Virus record (IMG/VR): IMGVR_UViG_3300025530_000412
Source: an uncultured virus (IMG/VR IMGVR_UViG_3300025530_000412)
Taxonomy: Duplodnaviria > Heunggongvirae > Uroviricota > Caudoviricetes
Strand: one strand, 5' to 3'
DNA: 64,000 bases
Shown: positions 2,757 to 57,560 of the stretch, piece by piece
Position numbering within the stretch: position 1 is the stretch's first letter
Layout of the letters: every line of letters starts with the position of its first letter
Made by a program: the position numbers and the translations under genes
Notes under the pieces: generated by a model
Told to the model about the DNA's origin: nothing
Seen by the model: only the letters and a program-made list of their open reading frames with translations
The model's database searches: none

Positions 2757-3596
2757 TTATTTCAAAAGTCCAGCGCGATCTAGAATCGTAACTAAGCGAT
2801 AAAAATCATAACTACCATTGTTGGGAGTATCGATTAGTCCTTTTTGAACGGCATTTTCAACGGCTTGTTTTGCCCAATCAGGAATCGCCTCTAATTTTTG
2901 ACGTTTTTCCAAATCAGCAATCTTTTTTTCCAATTGTTTAATTTGTTGTTGCAATTGTTGAATCATTTTTTCTTCTTCCTCCTTGTTTAATTTTTGATTC
3001 ATTACTGTTTTGACTTTTTCTTTGAATGTTTTCCACTCATTTGGGTTGTTCACAAACCACCTGTGGCAATCTTTCCAACCAACCACCTCCTGATGTGTCC
3101 ACAAATCCATAATTGGATCGAGTTTAAATTCAATGCAAAGGTCAGCACAACGTTCAACGAGTGTGTTATACGTTGCATCAGTCATTTTGCCTGTCCAGTC
3201 AACATGTGTACATTCAATTCCATATGTACAGTTGTTAGGGTACGGTTGTATTTTTTTAGATGAATTTGTATTTAGTCTTTCCCATGCAGCAGGAGTATAA
3301 ATTTGTGTAGCCCCTGCCTTATAAGGTCGATTAGTCCCTACATGGTAGGCCATTTCATCTTTTGGAATACAAATAATGATATCGCCATTAAGATCAATAA
3401 TTTCATGTGCTGAAGCATAAAGACTCTTTTTGGTTCTCAAAGACTCAAAATAATCTCTGTTATTTTTCGCTGTTGACATTGGATTTGCAACCCAATGCAC
3501 AACGATTCCAAGTATTTTTTTTATTTTTGTTTGTGGCCTTGAATAGGGATTGGGAGTTAAATATTGCTCAATAATTTTATAAGACAATGATATCAC
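2757..3596 (-). CDS. Endolysin, N-acetylmuramoyl-L-alanine amidase (Amidase_2)
   Basis: IVVHWVAN, ASAH, AYHVG, GIE, H-EV-GWKDC zinc-amidase motifs; C-terminal IPDWAK..AV cell-wall-binding segment. Confidence 0.9.
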   Translation of the reverse strand: MISLSYKIIEQYLTPNPYSRPQTKIKKILGIVVHWVANPMSTAKNNRDYFESLRTKKSLYASAHEIIDLNGDIIICIPKDEMAYHVGTNRPYKAGATQIYTPAAWERLNTNSSKKIQPYPNNCTYGIECTHVDWTGKMTDATYNTLVERCADLCIEFKLDPIMDLWTHQEVVGWKDCHRWFVNNPNEWKTFKEKVKTVMNQKLNKEEEEKMIQQLQQQIKQLEKKIADLEKRQKLEAIPDWAKQAVENAVQKGLIDTPNNGSYDFYRLVTILDRAGLLK

Positions 3597-45970: not shown

Positions 45971-47575
45971 TTATCTACAATTTTTACAAAAACTATGTAA
46001 TCCATCCTTATTCCTTTTGTCTGGACTAAAATATTTTGTTGTTGCTAATCTATTTTGTTTACATTTTGCACATGTCTTATAAGTTCCCTTAACCTTATAG
46101 GTAAAGATCCAATCTTCTCGATCTTGTAAATATGTACTAGCTATCATTTTAGGAATAGTATCATTATAAATTTTTGATAATCTATCTTCGGTTAATTTTA
46201 CACCGTATTTTTTATATATCTTCTCAATAATATCTTTGGCTTCATATCCGTCAATCTTCATAATCAAAATATCTTTAATGTAATCATCAAATAAAGTTTT
46301 TTCAATTAACTCATCTAATACAAATAAGATTGCCCACATGTCATGATCAGGTTGATAATATACACTTTGCTTAAGTTGACTGTAGTAATTAATCAATTCT
46401 AAAATATGTTTCTCTTTAGCAAAATCAATTCTGTTTTCTGATACTAATACATAGTCACCATATACAATTTGCCCATCAACGTATTTATCTGAAAAATATC
46501 CTGTATCTTCATCAAAATTAAAAACTGTTGATTCCTTTGTTAATCTTTTAAAATGAATAATACCAGCTAATTTTTCTTTCATTATCACTATTTCAGATGA
46601 CAAGTCCTTAAATAATTTCTTTAACATATATAACTGTTTTTCGCCGTATTTAGTTACAATTGCTTTTTCACATTCTTTTTTAATGTTGCTGTTCTTACCA
46701 TGACCTAATACTTTTCTTAAGTATTGTAATACATCATATACTTCTTTGATTTCAGGATATTTTACCAAATCTTCGCTAGTTATTTTTATTTTTTTGTTGA
46801 TTGTGAATATTTTAGGTATCTTTTCAACTTCTTCCTTGCTACCAAGTAAAATTTCTTTCTTACTCCCCAAATTCATGTTCTTCTTTGTTTTTTTAAGTTT
46901 TACAGTACTTCCCCATTCAACACTTTTCTTTTTTTGTGTTTGATTTTTATATTTAGGAAATACCAAATAATCAACAATAGTACTTAAACCAAGTAAAGAA
47001 GTATCATTTTCTGTCAAGAAATCAGATTTTGATTTAATTTGTTTTTTTGCAAATAATGGTGAACTAATATAATTTATTAACCATTCTATCTTTTCATTGG
47101 TTAACACCTTATTTAAATGTTCAACTCGATCTTCTGCAAATTCTAAATTATAATCTAATTGTTTGATAATAGAATATAAAAATTGTTGGATGCTTCCGTC
47201 AACATGCCACTTTTTCTGTTTTGACCACTCATCTCTTTTTTGTTGCCACGGTCTTTTTATTTCCTCTAGGTTATAACCATAATCGATTTCATTACTTCTA
47301 AACTGATTAATCCAATAATTTTTTCTTTCATTCAATTTATCAGGATCGTCAAGTGTTTCAAGAATAATAAATTCAAATGAATCTTGCTTGTATTTATTCC
47401 AAGCATCCTGCAATCTCTTATTTTTATGCTCTCCCTTGTTTAATTTTTTGATCAATGGTGCCTTGTATGTATTAATATTTTTTGTTGAATTAATAAACAT
47501 TTTATTTGTATGTTTGTTTGTAATGCAATAAATTCCTAGTTGAGAATCATTCATCATTGTCCCTTGTATCACCAC
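45971..47575 (-). CDS. Protein with a GIY-YIG-like N-terminus, C-terminal HTH-like segment and Zn finger
   Basis: GIYCITN...MFINS, HKNKRLQDAWNKY...F.FIILE, GYNL; CAKC...FCKNC. Confidence 0.6.
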   Translation of the reverse strand: MVIQGTMMNDSQLGIYCITNKHTNKMFINSTKNINTYKAPLIKKLNKGEHKNKRLQDAWNKYKQDSFEFIILETLDDPDKLNERKNYWINQFRSNEIDYGYNLEEIKRPWQQKRDEWSKQKKWHVDGSIQQFLYSIIKQLDYNLEFAEDRVEHLNKVLTNEKIEWLINYISSPLFAKKQIKSKSDFLTENDTSLLGLSTIVDYLVFPKYKNQTQKKKSVEWGSTVKLKKTKKNMNLGSKKEILLGSKEEVEKIPKIFTINKKIKITSEDLVKYPEIKEVYDVLQYLRKVLGHGKNSNIKKECEKAIVTKYGEKQLYMLKKLFKDLSSEIVIMKEKLAGIIHFKRLTKESTVFNFDEDTGYFSDKYVDGQIVYGDYVLVSENRIDFAKEKHILELINYYSQLKQSVYYQPDHDMWAILFVLDELIEKTLFDDYIKDILIMKIDGYEAKDIIEKIYKKYGVKLTEDRLSKIYNDTIPKMIASTYLQDREDWIFTYKVKGTYKTCAKCKQNRLATTKYFSPDKRNKDGLHSFCKNCR

Positions 47576-53916: not shown

Positions 53917-54425
53917 AAACAATAAAAGGAATTGAACAACAGCAACGACGACAATCACTTTCCCTCCCTGCTCGGACTGCTTATACCGTATCAAGCGATA
54001 CGGACGGCAACGAATCCGATCAAAGGGGAAGACATTGAAAACGTCTAGCACGCTGAATCAATTCCCTACATAGTTACTTGGCAGGATGCGAACGCAAGAT
54101 AGCTTGCACTAGCATCCGGGGAAGTCGCTGAACAGCGCAAGCTGAACGGCGCAAGGGCTGATCTTTGAAAATAAAATATTATTTACACGCGAGTTATTCG
54201 CGTGCGTGGAAACGGCGATCCACGTTACAACAGCTTGTCAAAATGTGGACAGGCTGTCCGTACACGAAACAGCGTGGCAGCACTTCGTGGAACCTGGGGA
54301 GTCCACGGAGGCGACTGTATGAGCGAGATATACCGTCAAAAAAGCCCCTAGTCAGCTATCTGACTTGAAAGGGTACGCTTATTTCGTATCATATAGGCAC
54401 GGTAGGAGTCCGGCACAACCCCCAC
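53917..54425 (+). ncRNA. Candidate large structured non-coding RNA / leader (family not recognised)
   Basis: GC-rich island with no credible ORF; many hairpins (CCGTATC/GATACGG, GGATGC/GCATCC, CACGCGAG/TTCGCGTG, ACAGCTTGTC/GACAGGCTGT, CTTCGTGGA/TCCACGGAG). Confidence 0.6.
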
Positions 54426-54470
54426 ATTATTCCGCTTTTTCTGTCCCCTTGCAAGAAGGGAGAAATAATA

Positions 54471-54684: not shown

Positions 54685-54933
54685 ATGATTATTTATCAAA
54701 ATGATTATATTACAATCAAGAAAAAAAATGTTTTTGGAAAGATTGGTTTAAGTGGTTATAACTCAAAAAATAATGCAACAATAACAGCATTTGCAAAGAA
54801 TGAAGCAGAAATAAATGAAAAAATAAAATATATAATTAACGAACTAAAAAAAGATAACAGTGTTATAAATTTAACTGAAAAACTAACAAAAATCGAAAAT
54901 AATTTTCTAAAAACAGTTTTTAACCATGAATAG
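54685..54933 (+). CDS. Hypothetical early protein
   Basis: RBS AAGGAGG. Confidence 0.65.
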   Translation: MIIYQNDYITIKKKNVFGKIGLSGYNSKNNATITAFAKNEAEINEKIKYIINELKKDNSVINLTEKLTKIENNFLKTVFNHE

Positions 54934-55043
54934 ATTTTATTTAATTGTCCAACATTGCAAATGGCGCATAACAGCCACGTTGTGCGCCTTATGGAGTGTT
55001 GGACGCTCCAAAAAAATAAAATATTACATAGGAGGAACAAACA

Positions 55044-55340
55044 ATGCAAGTAAAATTCATGTACAACGGCATAAAGGTTGACGGCAAACTGTATCGCGCC
55101 TATTACTGGCCGTGTACTTCCCGAAACATGCCGGAAGGAACGATCATCATTCGCGCGAAGGATTACGAGAGTTTCCCGAAAATTCCGGGTCTACGTACAA
55201 TAAACAACACGGACACGATGACGGATTATTTCGAAAAGGATCGAATTTACGTTGAGCCGAATAACCAATGGTATCCGCAAGTTCTTTCGGCGTATAAAAA
55301 ACTGCAAGAGCGGCGCGAACGTCGAAGGAACCCCGCCTGA
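55044..55340 (+). CDS. Hypothetical early protein; stop codon lies in the hammerhead core
   Basis: RBS AGGAGG; ends CCC GCC TGA. Confidence 0.7.
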   Translation: MQVKFMYNGIKVDGKLYRAYYWPCTSRNMPEGTIIIRAKDYESFPKIPGLRTINNTDTMTDYFEKDRIYVEPNNQWYPQVLSAYKKLQERRERRRNPA

Positions 55341-55394
55341 CGATGGCCCGGTGGCTCCGGGTCGAAACGCCCATAAGGGCGTCGCGGGAAGCCG
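55332..55394 (+). ncRNA. Type I hammerhead ribozyme 1
   Basis: Stem I CCCGC/GCGGG; CUGACGA; stem II GGCCCGG/CCGGGUC; GAAAC; stem III GCCC/GGGC; GUC cleavage after 55383; loop II UGGCU pairs with 3' AGCCG. Confidence 0.9.
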
Positions 55395-55421
55395 CAAAAT
55401 CAAATGAGGGAGTGAACAAAA

Positions 55422-55619
55422 ATGGCAAAACGTTACTTCGATGGTGAGTATGTCGGTCTTAACAACGTGACTTACAGCGGATACTACACCGTTGAAGGTA
55501 ACGTAGTAGTCAGGTTTACGACAGACGACGGCGAAACTTTTGATCCCGTCGGCGCAACACTCGAAGACGTGTTGACCTTCACGGAGTTACCGGAAGAACG
55601 AAGAAGAAATACCGTCTGA
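55422..55619 (+). CDS. Hypothetical early protein
   Basis: RBS GAGGGAG directly after ribozyme 1. Confidence 0.65.
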   Translation: MAKRYFDGEYVGLNNVTYSGYYTVEGNVVVRFTTDDGETFDPVGATLEDVLTFTELPEERRRNTV

Positions 55620-55644
55620 TTTGTACATATTAAGGAGTGATAAC

Positions 55645-55980
55645 ATGACTATGACTAAAAAAATCATCATCAATGTTCGTCCTATCATTTCAAATCTTCT
55701 CGCCGATTGGGACGGAGAAGGAAAACAAAGTCAATATATCAGACGTAACAAAAAGCTGATACTTGAATTTGTTGAAAATCTAGTCAATGACATTTCGGTC
55801 CCTTATGATTTACAATATATCAATAGTTACAAATTAGACATTGAAAATAGGGAAGTGATAATAACATACACTTGGATAGAACAAGACAATATTTATGACT
55901 GGTGCGAAGGAATGAAACTTAATTTGCAAGTCATTTCTGATCATATATGGCAAAAAGGCTTGACATGCATAGTAAAATGA
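55645..55980 (+). CDS. Hypothetical protein, paralogue copy 1 (MTMTKKIIINVRP family)
   Basis: RBS AAGGAGTG; near-identical to 56824..57156. Confidence 0.7.
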   Translation: MTMTKKIIINVRPIISNLLADWDGEGKQSQYIRRNKKLILEFVENLVNDISVPYDLQYINSYKLDIENREVIITYTWIEQDNIYDWCEGMKLNLQVISDHIWQKGLTCIVK

Positions 55981-56003
55981 AAATATATGGGAGGAACAAA
56001 CAA

Positions 56004-56249
56004 ATGTGGATGCAAATTAACGAAAATATTGATACCGGAATTGTTTCTGTCACATTATACGACGGATACGGCAACATTCTTGAACAAAAAGAGAATATGA
56101 CGGAAGACGTTGCTGAAAGTTATGTCCTTATGCTCAATGACAATTATTGTTTTTCGCAAAACATGAGAGTAGAAAACAACATTTACAAAAATGGAGAACT
56201 TTTTCGCACATTTCATCATTTTTTTAGTGACTTTATTGCAAGTTTTTGA
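56004..56249 (+). CDS. Hypothetical early protein
   Basis: RBS GGGAGG before ATG 56004. Confidence 0.6.
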   Translation: MWMQINENIDTGIVSVTLYDGYGNILEQKENMTEDVAESYVLMLNDNYCFSQNMRVENNIYKNGELFRTFHHFFSDFIASF

Positions 56250-56307
56250 ATGTTTATCTTGAACATAAGTTATCAGTTTTTCCGTTTACGAATTGGAGGG
56301 ATTGACC

Positions 56308-56481
56308 ATGTATAACAGAATTGGACCACAAGCCGAATACAAATTCCGTTGTGCTAAACATCAAGTATACACTCGCTGCGGGAAGATGATCGAAGTCATG
56401 GCGGACGGAAAAAAGGAAGCAAGAAAGATTGTCGAGTCACACGGATATGCAGTTGCTTTTGTAACACGCATTCCCGCCTGA
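56308..56481 (+). CDS. Hypothetical early protein; stop codon lies in the hammerhead core
   Basis: RBS GGAGGG before ATG 56308; ends CCC GCC TGA. Confidence 0.6.
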   Translation: MYNRIGPQAEYKFRCAKHQVYTRCGKMIEVMADGKKEARKIVESHGYAVAFVTRIPA

Positions 56482-56552
56482 CGAGCGCGAAGGCGCCTTT
56501 GGGCCCGCTGGCTACGGGCCGAAACCGGGCTTGTCCCGGTCGCGGGAAGCCG
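56471..56552 (+). ncRNA. Type I hammerhead ribozyme 2, with an extra hairpin before stem II
   Basis: Stem I UUCCCGC/GCGGGAA; CUGACGA; 17-nt insert; stem II GGCCCG/CGGGCC; GAAAC; stem III CGGG/CCCG; GUC cleavage after 56541; same UGGCU/AGCCG pseudoknot. Confidence 0.82.
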
Positions 56553-56577
56553 CAAAACTATGAAAGGGTGATTAGAT

Positions 56578-56802
56578 ATGGAAAAGCATCTGGTTTATTA
56601 CGGTTCTGGAGAAAGCCGGGAAAATCCCGGCGTTGGCGTCGATTTCATGAAGGCCGACGTGGATGGAATCGAGTTGTATGCCGAGATGCCGCCGGTGGAA
56701 GGTGATGAAACCGGGACGTATGACGCGTTGAAAGCTGAAATCCTTGCCCAAGCGCAGGCGCACGGGATCGACGTTTCTTGCCTAGTATTTTGGAATGATT
56801 GA
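56578..56802 (+). CDS. Acidic hypothetical early protein
   Basis: RBS AAGGGTG after ribozyme 2. Confidence 0.65.
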   Translation: MEKHLVYYGSGESRENPGVGVDFMKADVDGIELYAEMPPVEGDETGTYDALKAEILAQAQAHGIDVSCLVFWND

Positions 56803-56823
56803 GCATGATTAAGGAGTGATAAC

Positions 56824-57156
56824 ATGACTATGACTAAAAAAATCATCATCAATGTTCGTCCCATTATTTCTAGATTGCTCGACGATTGGGACGGAGAAGG
56901 AACGCAAAAACAATATATTAAACGTAACAAAAAATTGATATTTGAATATGTCGAAAATCTAATCAATGATGTTTCATCTCCTGACTTGCACTATATAAAA
57001 AATTACAAACTGGATATCGAGAATAGAGAAGTAGTTATCATATTCACATGGACGGAACAAGATAATATTTATGACTGGATGGAAGGAATGAAACACAATT
57101 TACAAGCTATTTCTAACCATATATGGCAAAAAGGTTTGACGTGTGTAACAGTTTAA
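56824..57156 (+). CDS. Hypothetical protein, paralogue copy 2
   Basis: Duplicate of 55645..55980 including the upstream TTAAGGAGTGATAAC. Confidence 0.7.
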   Translation: MTMTKKIIINVRPIISRLLDDWDGEGTQKQYIKRNKKLIFEYVENLINDVSSPDLHYIKNYKLDIENREVVIIFTWTEQDNIYDWMEGMKHNLQAISNHIWQKGLTCVTV

Positions 57157-57157
57157 C

Positions 57158-57231
57158 AGTCGTTCCGGCGACTCTAAACAGCGCATTAAGCCGGAAGCGT
57201 TAGACCGCATATAACAGCGGTCTAGGTTGCG
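57158..57231 (+). ncRNA. Pistol self-cleaving ribozyme
   Basis: P1 AGUCG/CGACU; loop UUCCGG pairs with CCGGAA; CUAAACAG; P2 CGCA/UGCG; UUAAG; GCG; P3 UAGACCGC/GCGGUCUA; G-U cleavage at 57226/57227. Confidence 0.9.
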
Positions 57232-57254
57232 AATAACAGAACGGGGGGAATAAC

Positions 57255-57560
57255 ATGGCAATAAGACTTAATCAAGAACAATTATTTACGGTCTGTCGGA
57301 TACTATCCAAGGATTTACATAATATTTACATAACAGAACACGCCGAACAACGCATGGAACAACGTAAAATATCATATGATGATATAATAAATGCGCTGTC
57401 GAATCCTATTGAATTATTAGACATTCGTTTAACAGAAAAGAGATATTACGCATATAAAATTCATGGGAGTGATAAAAACAAACATATTGTTTTTGTAATT
57501 GACGAAAAAACACGGACAATACATGTTGTTACAGTCATAAATAAACTATATAATCATTAA
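57255..57560 (+). CDS. DUF4258-like (RelE/BrnT-fold) putative RNase toxin
   Basis: ITEHAEQRMEQRKISYDDI..AL, HIVF...VVTV. Confidence 0.7.
   Translation: MAIRLNQEQLFTVCRILSKDLHNIYITEHAEQRMEQRKISYDDIINALSNPIELLDIRLTEKRYYAYKIHGSDKNKHIVFVIDEKTRTIHVVTVINKLYNH

Follow-up and report, generated by a model that had tools for sequence, protein, structure and literature searches.

The stretch of DNA analysed here, 64,000 nucleotides (nt) long and called the window below, comes from the minus strand of an IMG/VR provirus record of 77.7 kb (IMGVR_UViG_3300025530_000412) of an uncultured virus of the Caudoviricetes. Small genes on the plus strand form a run from about 54.5 to 58.6 kb of the window; an integrase gene, an exonuclease V/helicase gene and an HNH endonuclease gene lie on the same strand 5′ of this run, and an excisionase-like gene lies 3′ of it at 62.5 kb. 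Two unrelated open reading frames (ORFs) of the run, ORF1 and ORF5, both finish with the codons CCC GCC TGA (Pro-Ala-stop). At both places these letters belong at the same time to a type I hammerhead ribozyme, in which CCCGC forms the 5′ strand of stem I and TGA is part of the catalytic core CUGACGA. This double use, which the original prediction had read from the sequence alone, was confirmed and is exact at both hammerheads. A pistol ribozyme stands behind another gene of the run (Table 1).

Table 1. Genes and ribozymes of the array, with positions in the window (aa, amino acids; SD, Shine-Dalgarno sequence; RBS, ribosome-binding site; MFE, minimum free energy; R1, covariance model built in this work).
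Feature	Position	Strand	Description
ORF1	55044-55340	+	98 aa, phage protein without known function; SD AGGAGG 55030-55035; stop TGA 55338-55340
Hammerhead 1	55332-55395	+	type I; sequence, MFE fold, R1 81.1 bits
Gene after hammerhead 1	55422-55619	+	65 aa; RBS GAGGGAG; start 38 nt past the predicted cleavage site
Paralogous gene, first copy	55645-55980		111 aa; no ribozyme directly after
ORF5	56308-56481	+	57 aa, small, Cys-containing, function unassigned; SD GGAGGG 56295-56300; stop TGA 56479-56481
Hammerhead 2	56473-56553	+	type I variant; sequence, R1 51.0 bits
Gene after hammerhead 2	56578-56802	+	74 aa; start 36 nt past the predicted cleavage site
Paralogous gene, second copy	56824-57156	+	110 aa; stop TAA 57154-57156, ends 1 nt before the pistol ribozyme
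Pistol ribozyme	57158-57231	+	Rfam RF02679; third intercistronic ribozyme of the array
Gene after pistol ribozyme	57255-57560	+	101 aa, DUF4258; Pfam PF14076, E 3.5e-11

Both stop codons correspond to U4-G5-A6 of the cores, and the Pro and Ala codons before them make up the 5′ strand of stem I plus C3. At hammerhead 1, CCCGC (55332-55336) pairs with GCGGG (55384-55388); the core (55337-55343) is followed by one additional U after A9 (55344) and by a stem II of 7 base pairs (bp; 55345-55351 with 55357-55363) with the loop UGGCU. GAAA (55364-55367) then leads into a stem III of 6 bp, whose first pair is A15.1-U16.1 (55367-55372 with 55377-55382). C17 is at 55383, and cleavage is predicted between 55383 and 55384, 43 nt past the stop codon. 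The 3′ tail AGCCG (55390-55394) is complementary to loop II, as in a pseudoknot, and MFE folding of this hammerhead yields a three-way junction.

Hammerhead 2 has the same stem I strands (56473-56477 with 56542-56546) and the same core (56478-56484). Its stem II (56502-56507 with 56515-56520) and stem III (56524-56529 with 56535-56540) are followed by C17 at 56541, with cleavage predicted between 56541 and 56542, 60 nt past the stop codon, and by the tail AAGCCGC (56547-56553). Between A9 and stem II it carries an insert of 17 nt (56485-56501), composed of a 12-nt GC hairpin with a GNRA-type loop (56485-56496) and a 5-nt linker. The insert is also present at two homologous loci (L061 and L103), and a core-adjacent hairpin of this sort was not found described in the accessible part of the earlier account of bacterial hammerheads (PMC3088659). 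The two copies in the window are identical over 12 nt at the 5′ end and 19 nt at the 3′ end, and both carry CUGACGA, GAAA and the A-U pair followed by C17. The motif including its 3′ half occurred twice in the window and in none of 100 shuffles.

Rfam 15 returned no hammerhead, either at gathering score in the whole window or at E values up to 10 in the window and in stretches of 121 and 141 nt; homologues were therefore collected and a covariance model, R1, was built. A first scan of viral contigs with the core and the 3′ half fixed gave at least 123 stretches, and a second one with a stricter pattern, run on one genome per prokaryotic species, gave 98. False matches of the first scan, many without a stem I, were filtered out with a requirement for YYGC 5′ of the core and U-H-GCGGG 3′ of it. 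Together the two scans gave 151 unique hammerhead sequences among the matches listed, and 148 of these were aligned with hammerhead 1 (149 sequences). The genome records that held homologues in the second scan were mostly metagenome-assembled genomes of Clostridia (Christensenellales, Oscillospiraceae, Limiplasma). Contigs carried several hammerheads in one orientation.

In this alignment the core columns were invariant or nearly so, and standard pairs filled 90% of 3412 cells, compared with 25-43% when the partners were slid against each other. Eleven pairs changed on both sides, six of the seven in stem II and five of the six in stem III. There were 426 compensatory cells (shuffles, 173 ± 13), and the covariation score was 0.322, compared with 0.105 in shuffles and at most 0.080 with the partners slid by 1-3 columns. 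The search patterns fixed stem I and the tail, and the covariation is that of stems II and III. A third scan, anchored on stem II and leaving stem I free, gave 31 hits; CCCGC/GCGGG formed stem I in 21 of them, and two-sided changes in the remainder were CCCGU/ACGGG, CGCCU/AGGCG, CCCAC/GUGGG, CCGCC/GGCGG and UCCGC/GCGGA. The GGC of loop II was complementary to GCC of the tail in 134-148 of the 149 sequences, with the tail fixed by the pattern and no two-sided change. R1 recognised both window copies (hammerhead 2 with a 29-nt insert in stem II) and no third copy in the window. We regard both as type I hammerheads, established at the level of sequence and with predicted catalysis; the missing Rfam match is a limitation of the models and not a defining criterion of the class.

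A short motif, AGCUUCCAAAUCAA, recurs directly 3′ of many of these hammerheads, before the RBS, and directly 5′ of others (e.g., L013, L034, L078, and L087), where it is sometimes coding sequence; the window holds only the AAAUCAAA part of it, at 55396-55404. GCUUCC of AGCUUCCAAAUCAA is complementary to GGAAGC, the 5′ end of the 3′ cleavage product, and the two could form an alternative hairpin after cleavage.

From their sequences, ORF1 and ORF5 look like real translated genes. ORF1 has weak matches to PHROG 18160 and 18717 (E 2e-7) and 16 homologues, the close ones of which are 98 aa long and end in NPA, NLA or NHA. Synonymous codon differences outnumbered non-synonymous ones by 26 to 10 in comparison with a metagenome contig (L270) and by 38 to 23 in comparison with a second orthologue (L224). 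For ORF5, the homologues P0017 and P0018 are close, and the ratio was 22 to 9 against the orthologue in L322, the only locus of this family that was found in viral contigs. Contigs of two metatranscriptome runs cover both genes. A truncation of ORF1 by the ribozyme, considered in view of PHROG profiles of 167 and 185 positions, was ruled out, as the alignment of the 16 homologues shows a full-length protein with variable short tails.

Where upstream genes stop relative to the ribozyme was counted in the merged results of the first two scans. From 190 hits, 25 duplicates (identical over 120 nt upstream and the ribozyme) were dropped to leave 165, and a further eight with less than 150 nt of flank and three without an ORF of at least 45 codons were dropped as well. 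This left 154 instances among the matches listed, the two of the window included. The upstream stop was exactly at the core UGA in 41 of them. It adjoined stem I at positions -9 to -15 in 47 (mode -13, 21 cases), lay at -16 to -60 in 48, and was found still further 5′ in six. In the remaining 12 the longest ORF crossed the ribozyme, and in 10 of these an alternative good ORF stopped at or before the core. Genes that stopped at the core UGA ended in Pro-Ala (36) or Leu-Ala (5). In the sample of the third scan, which overlaps the other two in part, four of 29 stops were at the core UGA and 12 at -9 to -15. The next start codon, found in 145 of the 154 instances, followed the cleavage site at a median of 45 nt (quartiles 42-58).

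The upstream proteins fell into 59 families, 25 of which had at least one member stopping at the core UGA and 19 of which had such members only. The in-frame UGA, whose retention in homologous hammerheads had been proposed as a check of the original prediction, thus recurs in unrelated genes; at 41/154 and 4/29 it is, however, not conserved. Random placement of the frame relative to the core, named there as an outcome that would speak against the idea, was not found either: the frame is not random, and read-through of the ribozyme is nearly absent. Two overlaps in one window are unremarkable at a frequency of about 27% per instance, which would give about 7% for both if they were independent. 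The general layout is a stop codon, the ribozyme, a short leader with an RBS and the next gene, and the core UGA is the tightest version of this layout that the hammerhead sequence permits.

Single protein families showed how readily the arrangement changes. Family 18 holds both states, which differ by a change of TAA to AAA and a 1-nt deletion that together add KNPA. Family 1 holds both as well; a tail of six residues is lost (...FAEPYSF* versus ...MTFLA*). Offsets in family 0 run from -9 to -51, with one member at 0. An ORF1 orthologue without this hammerhead (L224) ends KRA-TGA at the same codon at which the window ends NPA-TGA, and the ORF5 orthologue of equal length in L322, with no ribozyme after it, ends ATA CCG CAA TAA where the window reads ATT CCC GCC TGA. 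Most of the ORF1 relatives in viral contigs had no hammerhead directly 3′ of the gene.

The pistol ribozyme of the array matches RF02679 with 63.8 bits (gathering score 34.5) over model positions 1-68 of 68; it begins 1 nt past the TAA of the preceding gene and ends 23 nt before the next start codon. For comparison, a regular expression gave 75 pistol-like hits in viral contigs, 51 of them with a callable upstream ORF, and only the copy of the window was checked against Rfam. The upstream stop lay within -2 to +2 nt of the first ribozyme base in 19 of the 51, ended within +5 to +14 nt in 11, fell inside the ribozyme in 12 and was at least 25 nt upstream in nine. The pistol therefore resembles the hammerheads in sharing their array and orientation and in standing flush behind a stop codon (30 of the 51 pistol-like elements within -2 to +14 nt). 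It is unlike them in its fold and cleavage site, and it has no obligatory core triplet at its 5′ edge that reads as a stop. Another contig (L225), which carries an ORF1 relative, has three hammerhead-model hits and a twister-sister ribozyme (3160-3229, 44.7 bits) together within about 1.4 kb and thus holds an array of mixed classes.

Two metatranscriptome runs on bioreactor samples, from two studies, contained 57% and 45% of the words sampled from the stretch, and their contigs were placed on positions 54900-57400. In both runs a contig extends from 56551, 9 nt past the predicted 5′ end of the hammerhead 2 product, to 57196/57197, which lies inside the pistol ribozyme about 30 nt before its predicted cleavage site (between 57226 and 57227). 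The contigs 5′ of hammerhead 2 end at 56528 and 56497, leaving gaps (56529-56550 and 56498-56550) that span the cleavage site. DNA contigs of two other runs are continuous through all three ribozymes and, near the array, break only at the duplicated gene pair. The breaks in the RNA contigs fit cleavage at hammerhead 2 and the pistol ribozyme and may be taken as a weak hint of it. Neither RNA run had contigs covering 55342-55936, and no circular junction was listed among these contigs.

On balance, we lean towards reading the overlap as a tolerated and often re-created packing at mosaic gene junctions, in which the ribozymes are intercistronic processing elements and no dedicated device is involved. 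Two active-looking hammerheads and a pistol ribozyme would punctuate a run of small prophage genes. Cleavage at the far 3′ end of the hammerhead would leave the upstream ORF complete with its stop codon; the 5′ product would consist of the ORF and stop and end in the ribozyme hairpins with a 2′,3′-cyclic phosphate, and the 3′ product would start with a 5′-hydroxyl, followed by GCGGGAAGCCGC (the 3′ strand of stem I) and by a short leader that carries the RBS for the next gene. This arrangement suggests that the ribozymes serve in intercistronic mRNA processing.

The frame of the core UGA would be the sole one in which an ORF can enter the GC-rich ribozyme and still terminate ahead of the cut. 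ORFs in the other two frames would give an mRNA without a stop codon after cleavage and be removed by selection; the scarcity of these frames may be explained in this way, because an ORF there crosses the cleavage site and loses its stop upon cleavage. At hammerhead 1 neither of the two other frames has a stop before the cleavage site, and a second in-frame stop in the UGA frame precedes the site in only eight of 41 homologues. Offset 0 would furthermore act as a sink, in a qualitative sense: every in-frame fusion reaches the same UGA, no matter whether the gene was truncated or lost its own stop, while each upstream offset corresponds to one junction. Genes that stop upstream showed no preference for the UGA frame (20:20:16), as might have been expected if the core UGA served as a backup stop. 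The base after the UGA, N7, was mostly C and did not differ with or without use of the UGA as a stop (20/27 versus 30/49 at the family level, p = 0.32).

Several observations weigh against this reading. The core UGA is the commonest single stop position, with 41 cases versus 21 for the second commonest, and its frame holds 45 of 81 distinct combinations of family and offset (binomial p = 3e-5 against one third); selection for the overlap could account for this excess. The core UGA of both window genes stands exactly at the native stop of the orthologues, which random junction formation does not predict. Within the ORF1 family the overlap is kept down to about 80% identity, with the tails NPA, NLA and NHA. 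The counts also have limits of their own: the upstream gene was taken, by a simple rule that is not a gene finder, as the longest ORF with 45 codons or more that either carried an RBS-like motif or continued past the end of the locus, and the hammerhead instances are related to one another and are not independent events. Finally, the ORF1 contigs of both RNA runs end at 55341, which is one base past the stop codon but still 42 nt short of the cleavage site predicted for hammerhead 1; poor priming in the two terminal hairpins is our guess for this end. The excess at the core UGA could fit the suggestion that recurrence in different ORFs points to selection; the lack of a frame preference among upstream stops, the unchanged N7 and the presence of both states within families speak against it.

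An alternative explanation is that the ribozyme serves as a recombination anchor, in which the hammerhead sequence itself, near-identical over 37 nt (stem I, core and stem II) and over 15 nt of the 3′ half, is the crossover site and Pro-Ala-stop spreads with the module. We consider this doubtful, even though neighbours are combined many to many: the 40 instances of upstream family 0 have 17 different downstream families behind them, the 16 instances of upstream family 1 have seven, and the 11 instances of downstream family 0 have six upstream families in front of them. The metagenome contig L270 is instructive here. Its ORF1 is 90% identical and also ends NPA-UGA within a hammerhead, whose stems II and III differ from those of the window and whose N7 is U, and the downstream gene is a different one; DNA homology to the window extends only from 3 nt before the ORF1 start codon to about 30 nt into the ribozyme, i.e., it stops inside the hammerhead. 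A crossover site would also fit a stem I that is unusually uniform for a freely covarying helix (CCCGC/GCGGG in 21 of 31 hits of the search that left it free), the several hammerheads per contig in one orientation and the identical ends of the two window copies.

Stems II and III, however, track neither neighbour cleanly. They were identical in 1.1% and 1.8% of cases with the same upstream and a different downstream family, and in 2.6% and 7.8% of cases with a different upstream and the same downstream family, at a baseline of 0.6% and 0.3%; the breakpoints are therefore not mapped to the ribozyme. Moreover, stops in a single upstream family lie anywhere between -9 and -51 relative to the ribozyme, which puts many junctions 5′ of it, and exchange within the ribozyme would carry an existing overlap along and not create one. 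What stands of the proposed anchor is its weak form, according to which ribozymes mark cassette boundaries, as indicated by the shuffled neighbours and by L270; stems II and III do not locate the crossover in the ribozyme itself.

Unlikely, in our view, is a translation-coupled ribozyme, in which termination at the core UGA was selected since ribosome traffic gates folding. Ribosomes could delay cleavage during translation of the upstream gene, or strip the 5′ strand of stem I and thereby free the 3′ product and block re-ligation, or shield the ribozyme against misfolding with upstream coding RNA. Judged by known ribosome footprints, a ribosome with the UGA in its A site would have its P and E sites occupied by the 5′ strand of stem I, and its mRNA channel by the core and the start of stem II. 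To terminate there it would have to open stem I, the core and part of stem II transiently, and translation and the folded ribozyme would therefore be mutually exclusive at that moment, which on the packing account is a by-product; stops at -9 to -15 would bring stem I to the channel entrance. Besides this geometry, coupling is favoured by the 88 of 154 stops that lie at 0 or at -9 to -15, within reach of stem I for a terminating ribosome, by the pistol-like ribozymes that hug stop codons likewise, by the excess of frame 0 at the family level and by the exact replacement of the native stop in both window genes.

The arrangement is nevertheless not conserved. In 54 of the 154 instances the stop lies more than 15 nt upstream (in 48 of them at 16-60 nt, beyond the reach of a terminating ribosome), and single families switch state. 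The base after the stop does not shift with the use of the UGA, genes that stop further 5′ do not favour the UGA frame as a backup, and gene-dense phage genomes give short distances anyway. The effect of the ribosome is irrelevant if cleavage is over by the time the first ribosome reaches the site. Most of the hosts are Clostridia, and in Firmicutes transcription is reported to run ahead of translation; a fast ribozyme would as a rule cut first, and the RNA contigs suggest that cleavage does occur in the community sample. For the translation-sensing switch of the original prediction this means that the anatomy of core and stem I was right, whereas the sensing itself received no specific support from N7, from the distances or from the frames of upstream stops; physically it is plausible, and as a possibility we keep it at that. 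Less probable still is a broader version, in which hammerhead and pistol ribozymes alike are placed on or against the upstream stop because the terminating ribosome belongs to their mechanism, through timing, release of the 3′ product or insulation of folding. If it were true, processing of operon mRNA would be coupled to translation of the preceding gene, and the core UGA would be the tightest form of this coupling.

That the overlap is a coincidence or an artefact, with ORFs that are not genes or motifs that are not ribozymes, is highly improbable and close to refuted: it could appeal to the silence of the Rfam hammerhead models up to E 10 in both short stretches, but the invariant core and strong covariation, the purifying selection on both ORFs, the protein family of 16 homologues and the RNA contigs over ORF1 and ORF5 stand against it.

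Returning to packing at gene junctions as the preferred account, the elements themselves have close precedents. In the accessible part of Perreault et al. (2011; PMC3088659), clustered prophage hammerheads are described that flank single genes or short gene blocks, processing of a long transcript is proposed, and hammerhead arrays from three bacteria cleaved in vitro. The hammerheads of the window resemble these in a putative pseudoknot contact, in occurring several per operon and in lying between small unrelated genes near integrase genes. They go beyond that description in one respect: the terms "stop codon" and "translation" are absent from the main text of that paper as available, and a core UGA serving as a stop is not described there. 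The portion of a 2019 review that we could access (PMC6765202) places pistol, twister and twister-sister ribozymes (RF02679, RF02681) in the same phage gene neighbourhoods as hammerheads and states that the purpose of self-cleaving ribozymes in bacteria and phages needs more work. The term "stop codon" was absent from the available text of this review and of the cyPhyRNA-seq paper (PMC8782182), and PMC13725137, as far as accessible, deals with RNA viruses. A pseudoknot hammerhead (PMC11300833) was considered as a match and rejected, as its helix II, in the available text, is replaced by a pseudoknot. Our literature search, with subscription papers and supplements outside its scope, found no paper on a hammerhead core UGA that serves as a stop codon.

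Two familiar kinds of arrangement help to place the overlap. Short gene overlaps such as ATGA and TAATG are frequent in the compact genomes of prokaryotes and phages; they are labile, and orthologues do not conserve them. Like them, the overlap described here uses one triplet for two functions and is permitted in one frame; unlike them, the second role is that of a core triplet of an RNA enzyme and not of a start codon, and the last two codons are dictated by a helix. In leader-peptide attenuators, the position of the ribosome on a short ORF selects the fold of the downstream RNA, with a conserved geometry and alternative pairings. The hammerheads differ from these in a stop position that varies from 0 to -51, and no alternative fold was found for them.

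Within a known kind of phage element, then, the overlap is both frequent and labile; if it is only packing, as we hold more likely, it represents ordinary and tidy dual coding. What the comparison adds is a quantified placement rule, in which ribozymes stand flush against or overlap the upstream stop about 45 nt ahead of the next start codon, and in which about one case in four has a triplet of the catalytic core doubling as a stop codon. The hypothesis that ribosome traffic hinders or aids the folding of the ribozyme is thereby made testable. For annotators, it means that an RNA helix prescribes the last two codons of such genes, Pro-Ala.

Further features of the window concern the surroundings of the array. 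The two paralogous genes (Table 1) both begin with MTMTKKIIINVRPIIS and lie 1.2 kb apart, with a ribozyme after the second only. Directly 5′ of the small-gene array, 541 nt (53925-54465) have no credible ORF and a G+C content above that of the surroundings. This region folds with -191.8 kcal/mol (z -6.2; none of 100 shuffles was equally good), gave no Rfam match at E values up to 10 and no blastn match in the phage collection, and is a candidate for a large structured RNA on the strength of its predicted fold. On the minus strand, an ORF of 534 aa (45971-47575) combines an N-terminal part resembling GIY-YIG homing endonucleases (PHROG 5123, E 3e-10) with a phage sigma factor (PHROG 5767, E 3e-55).

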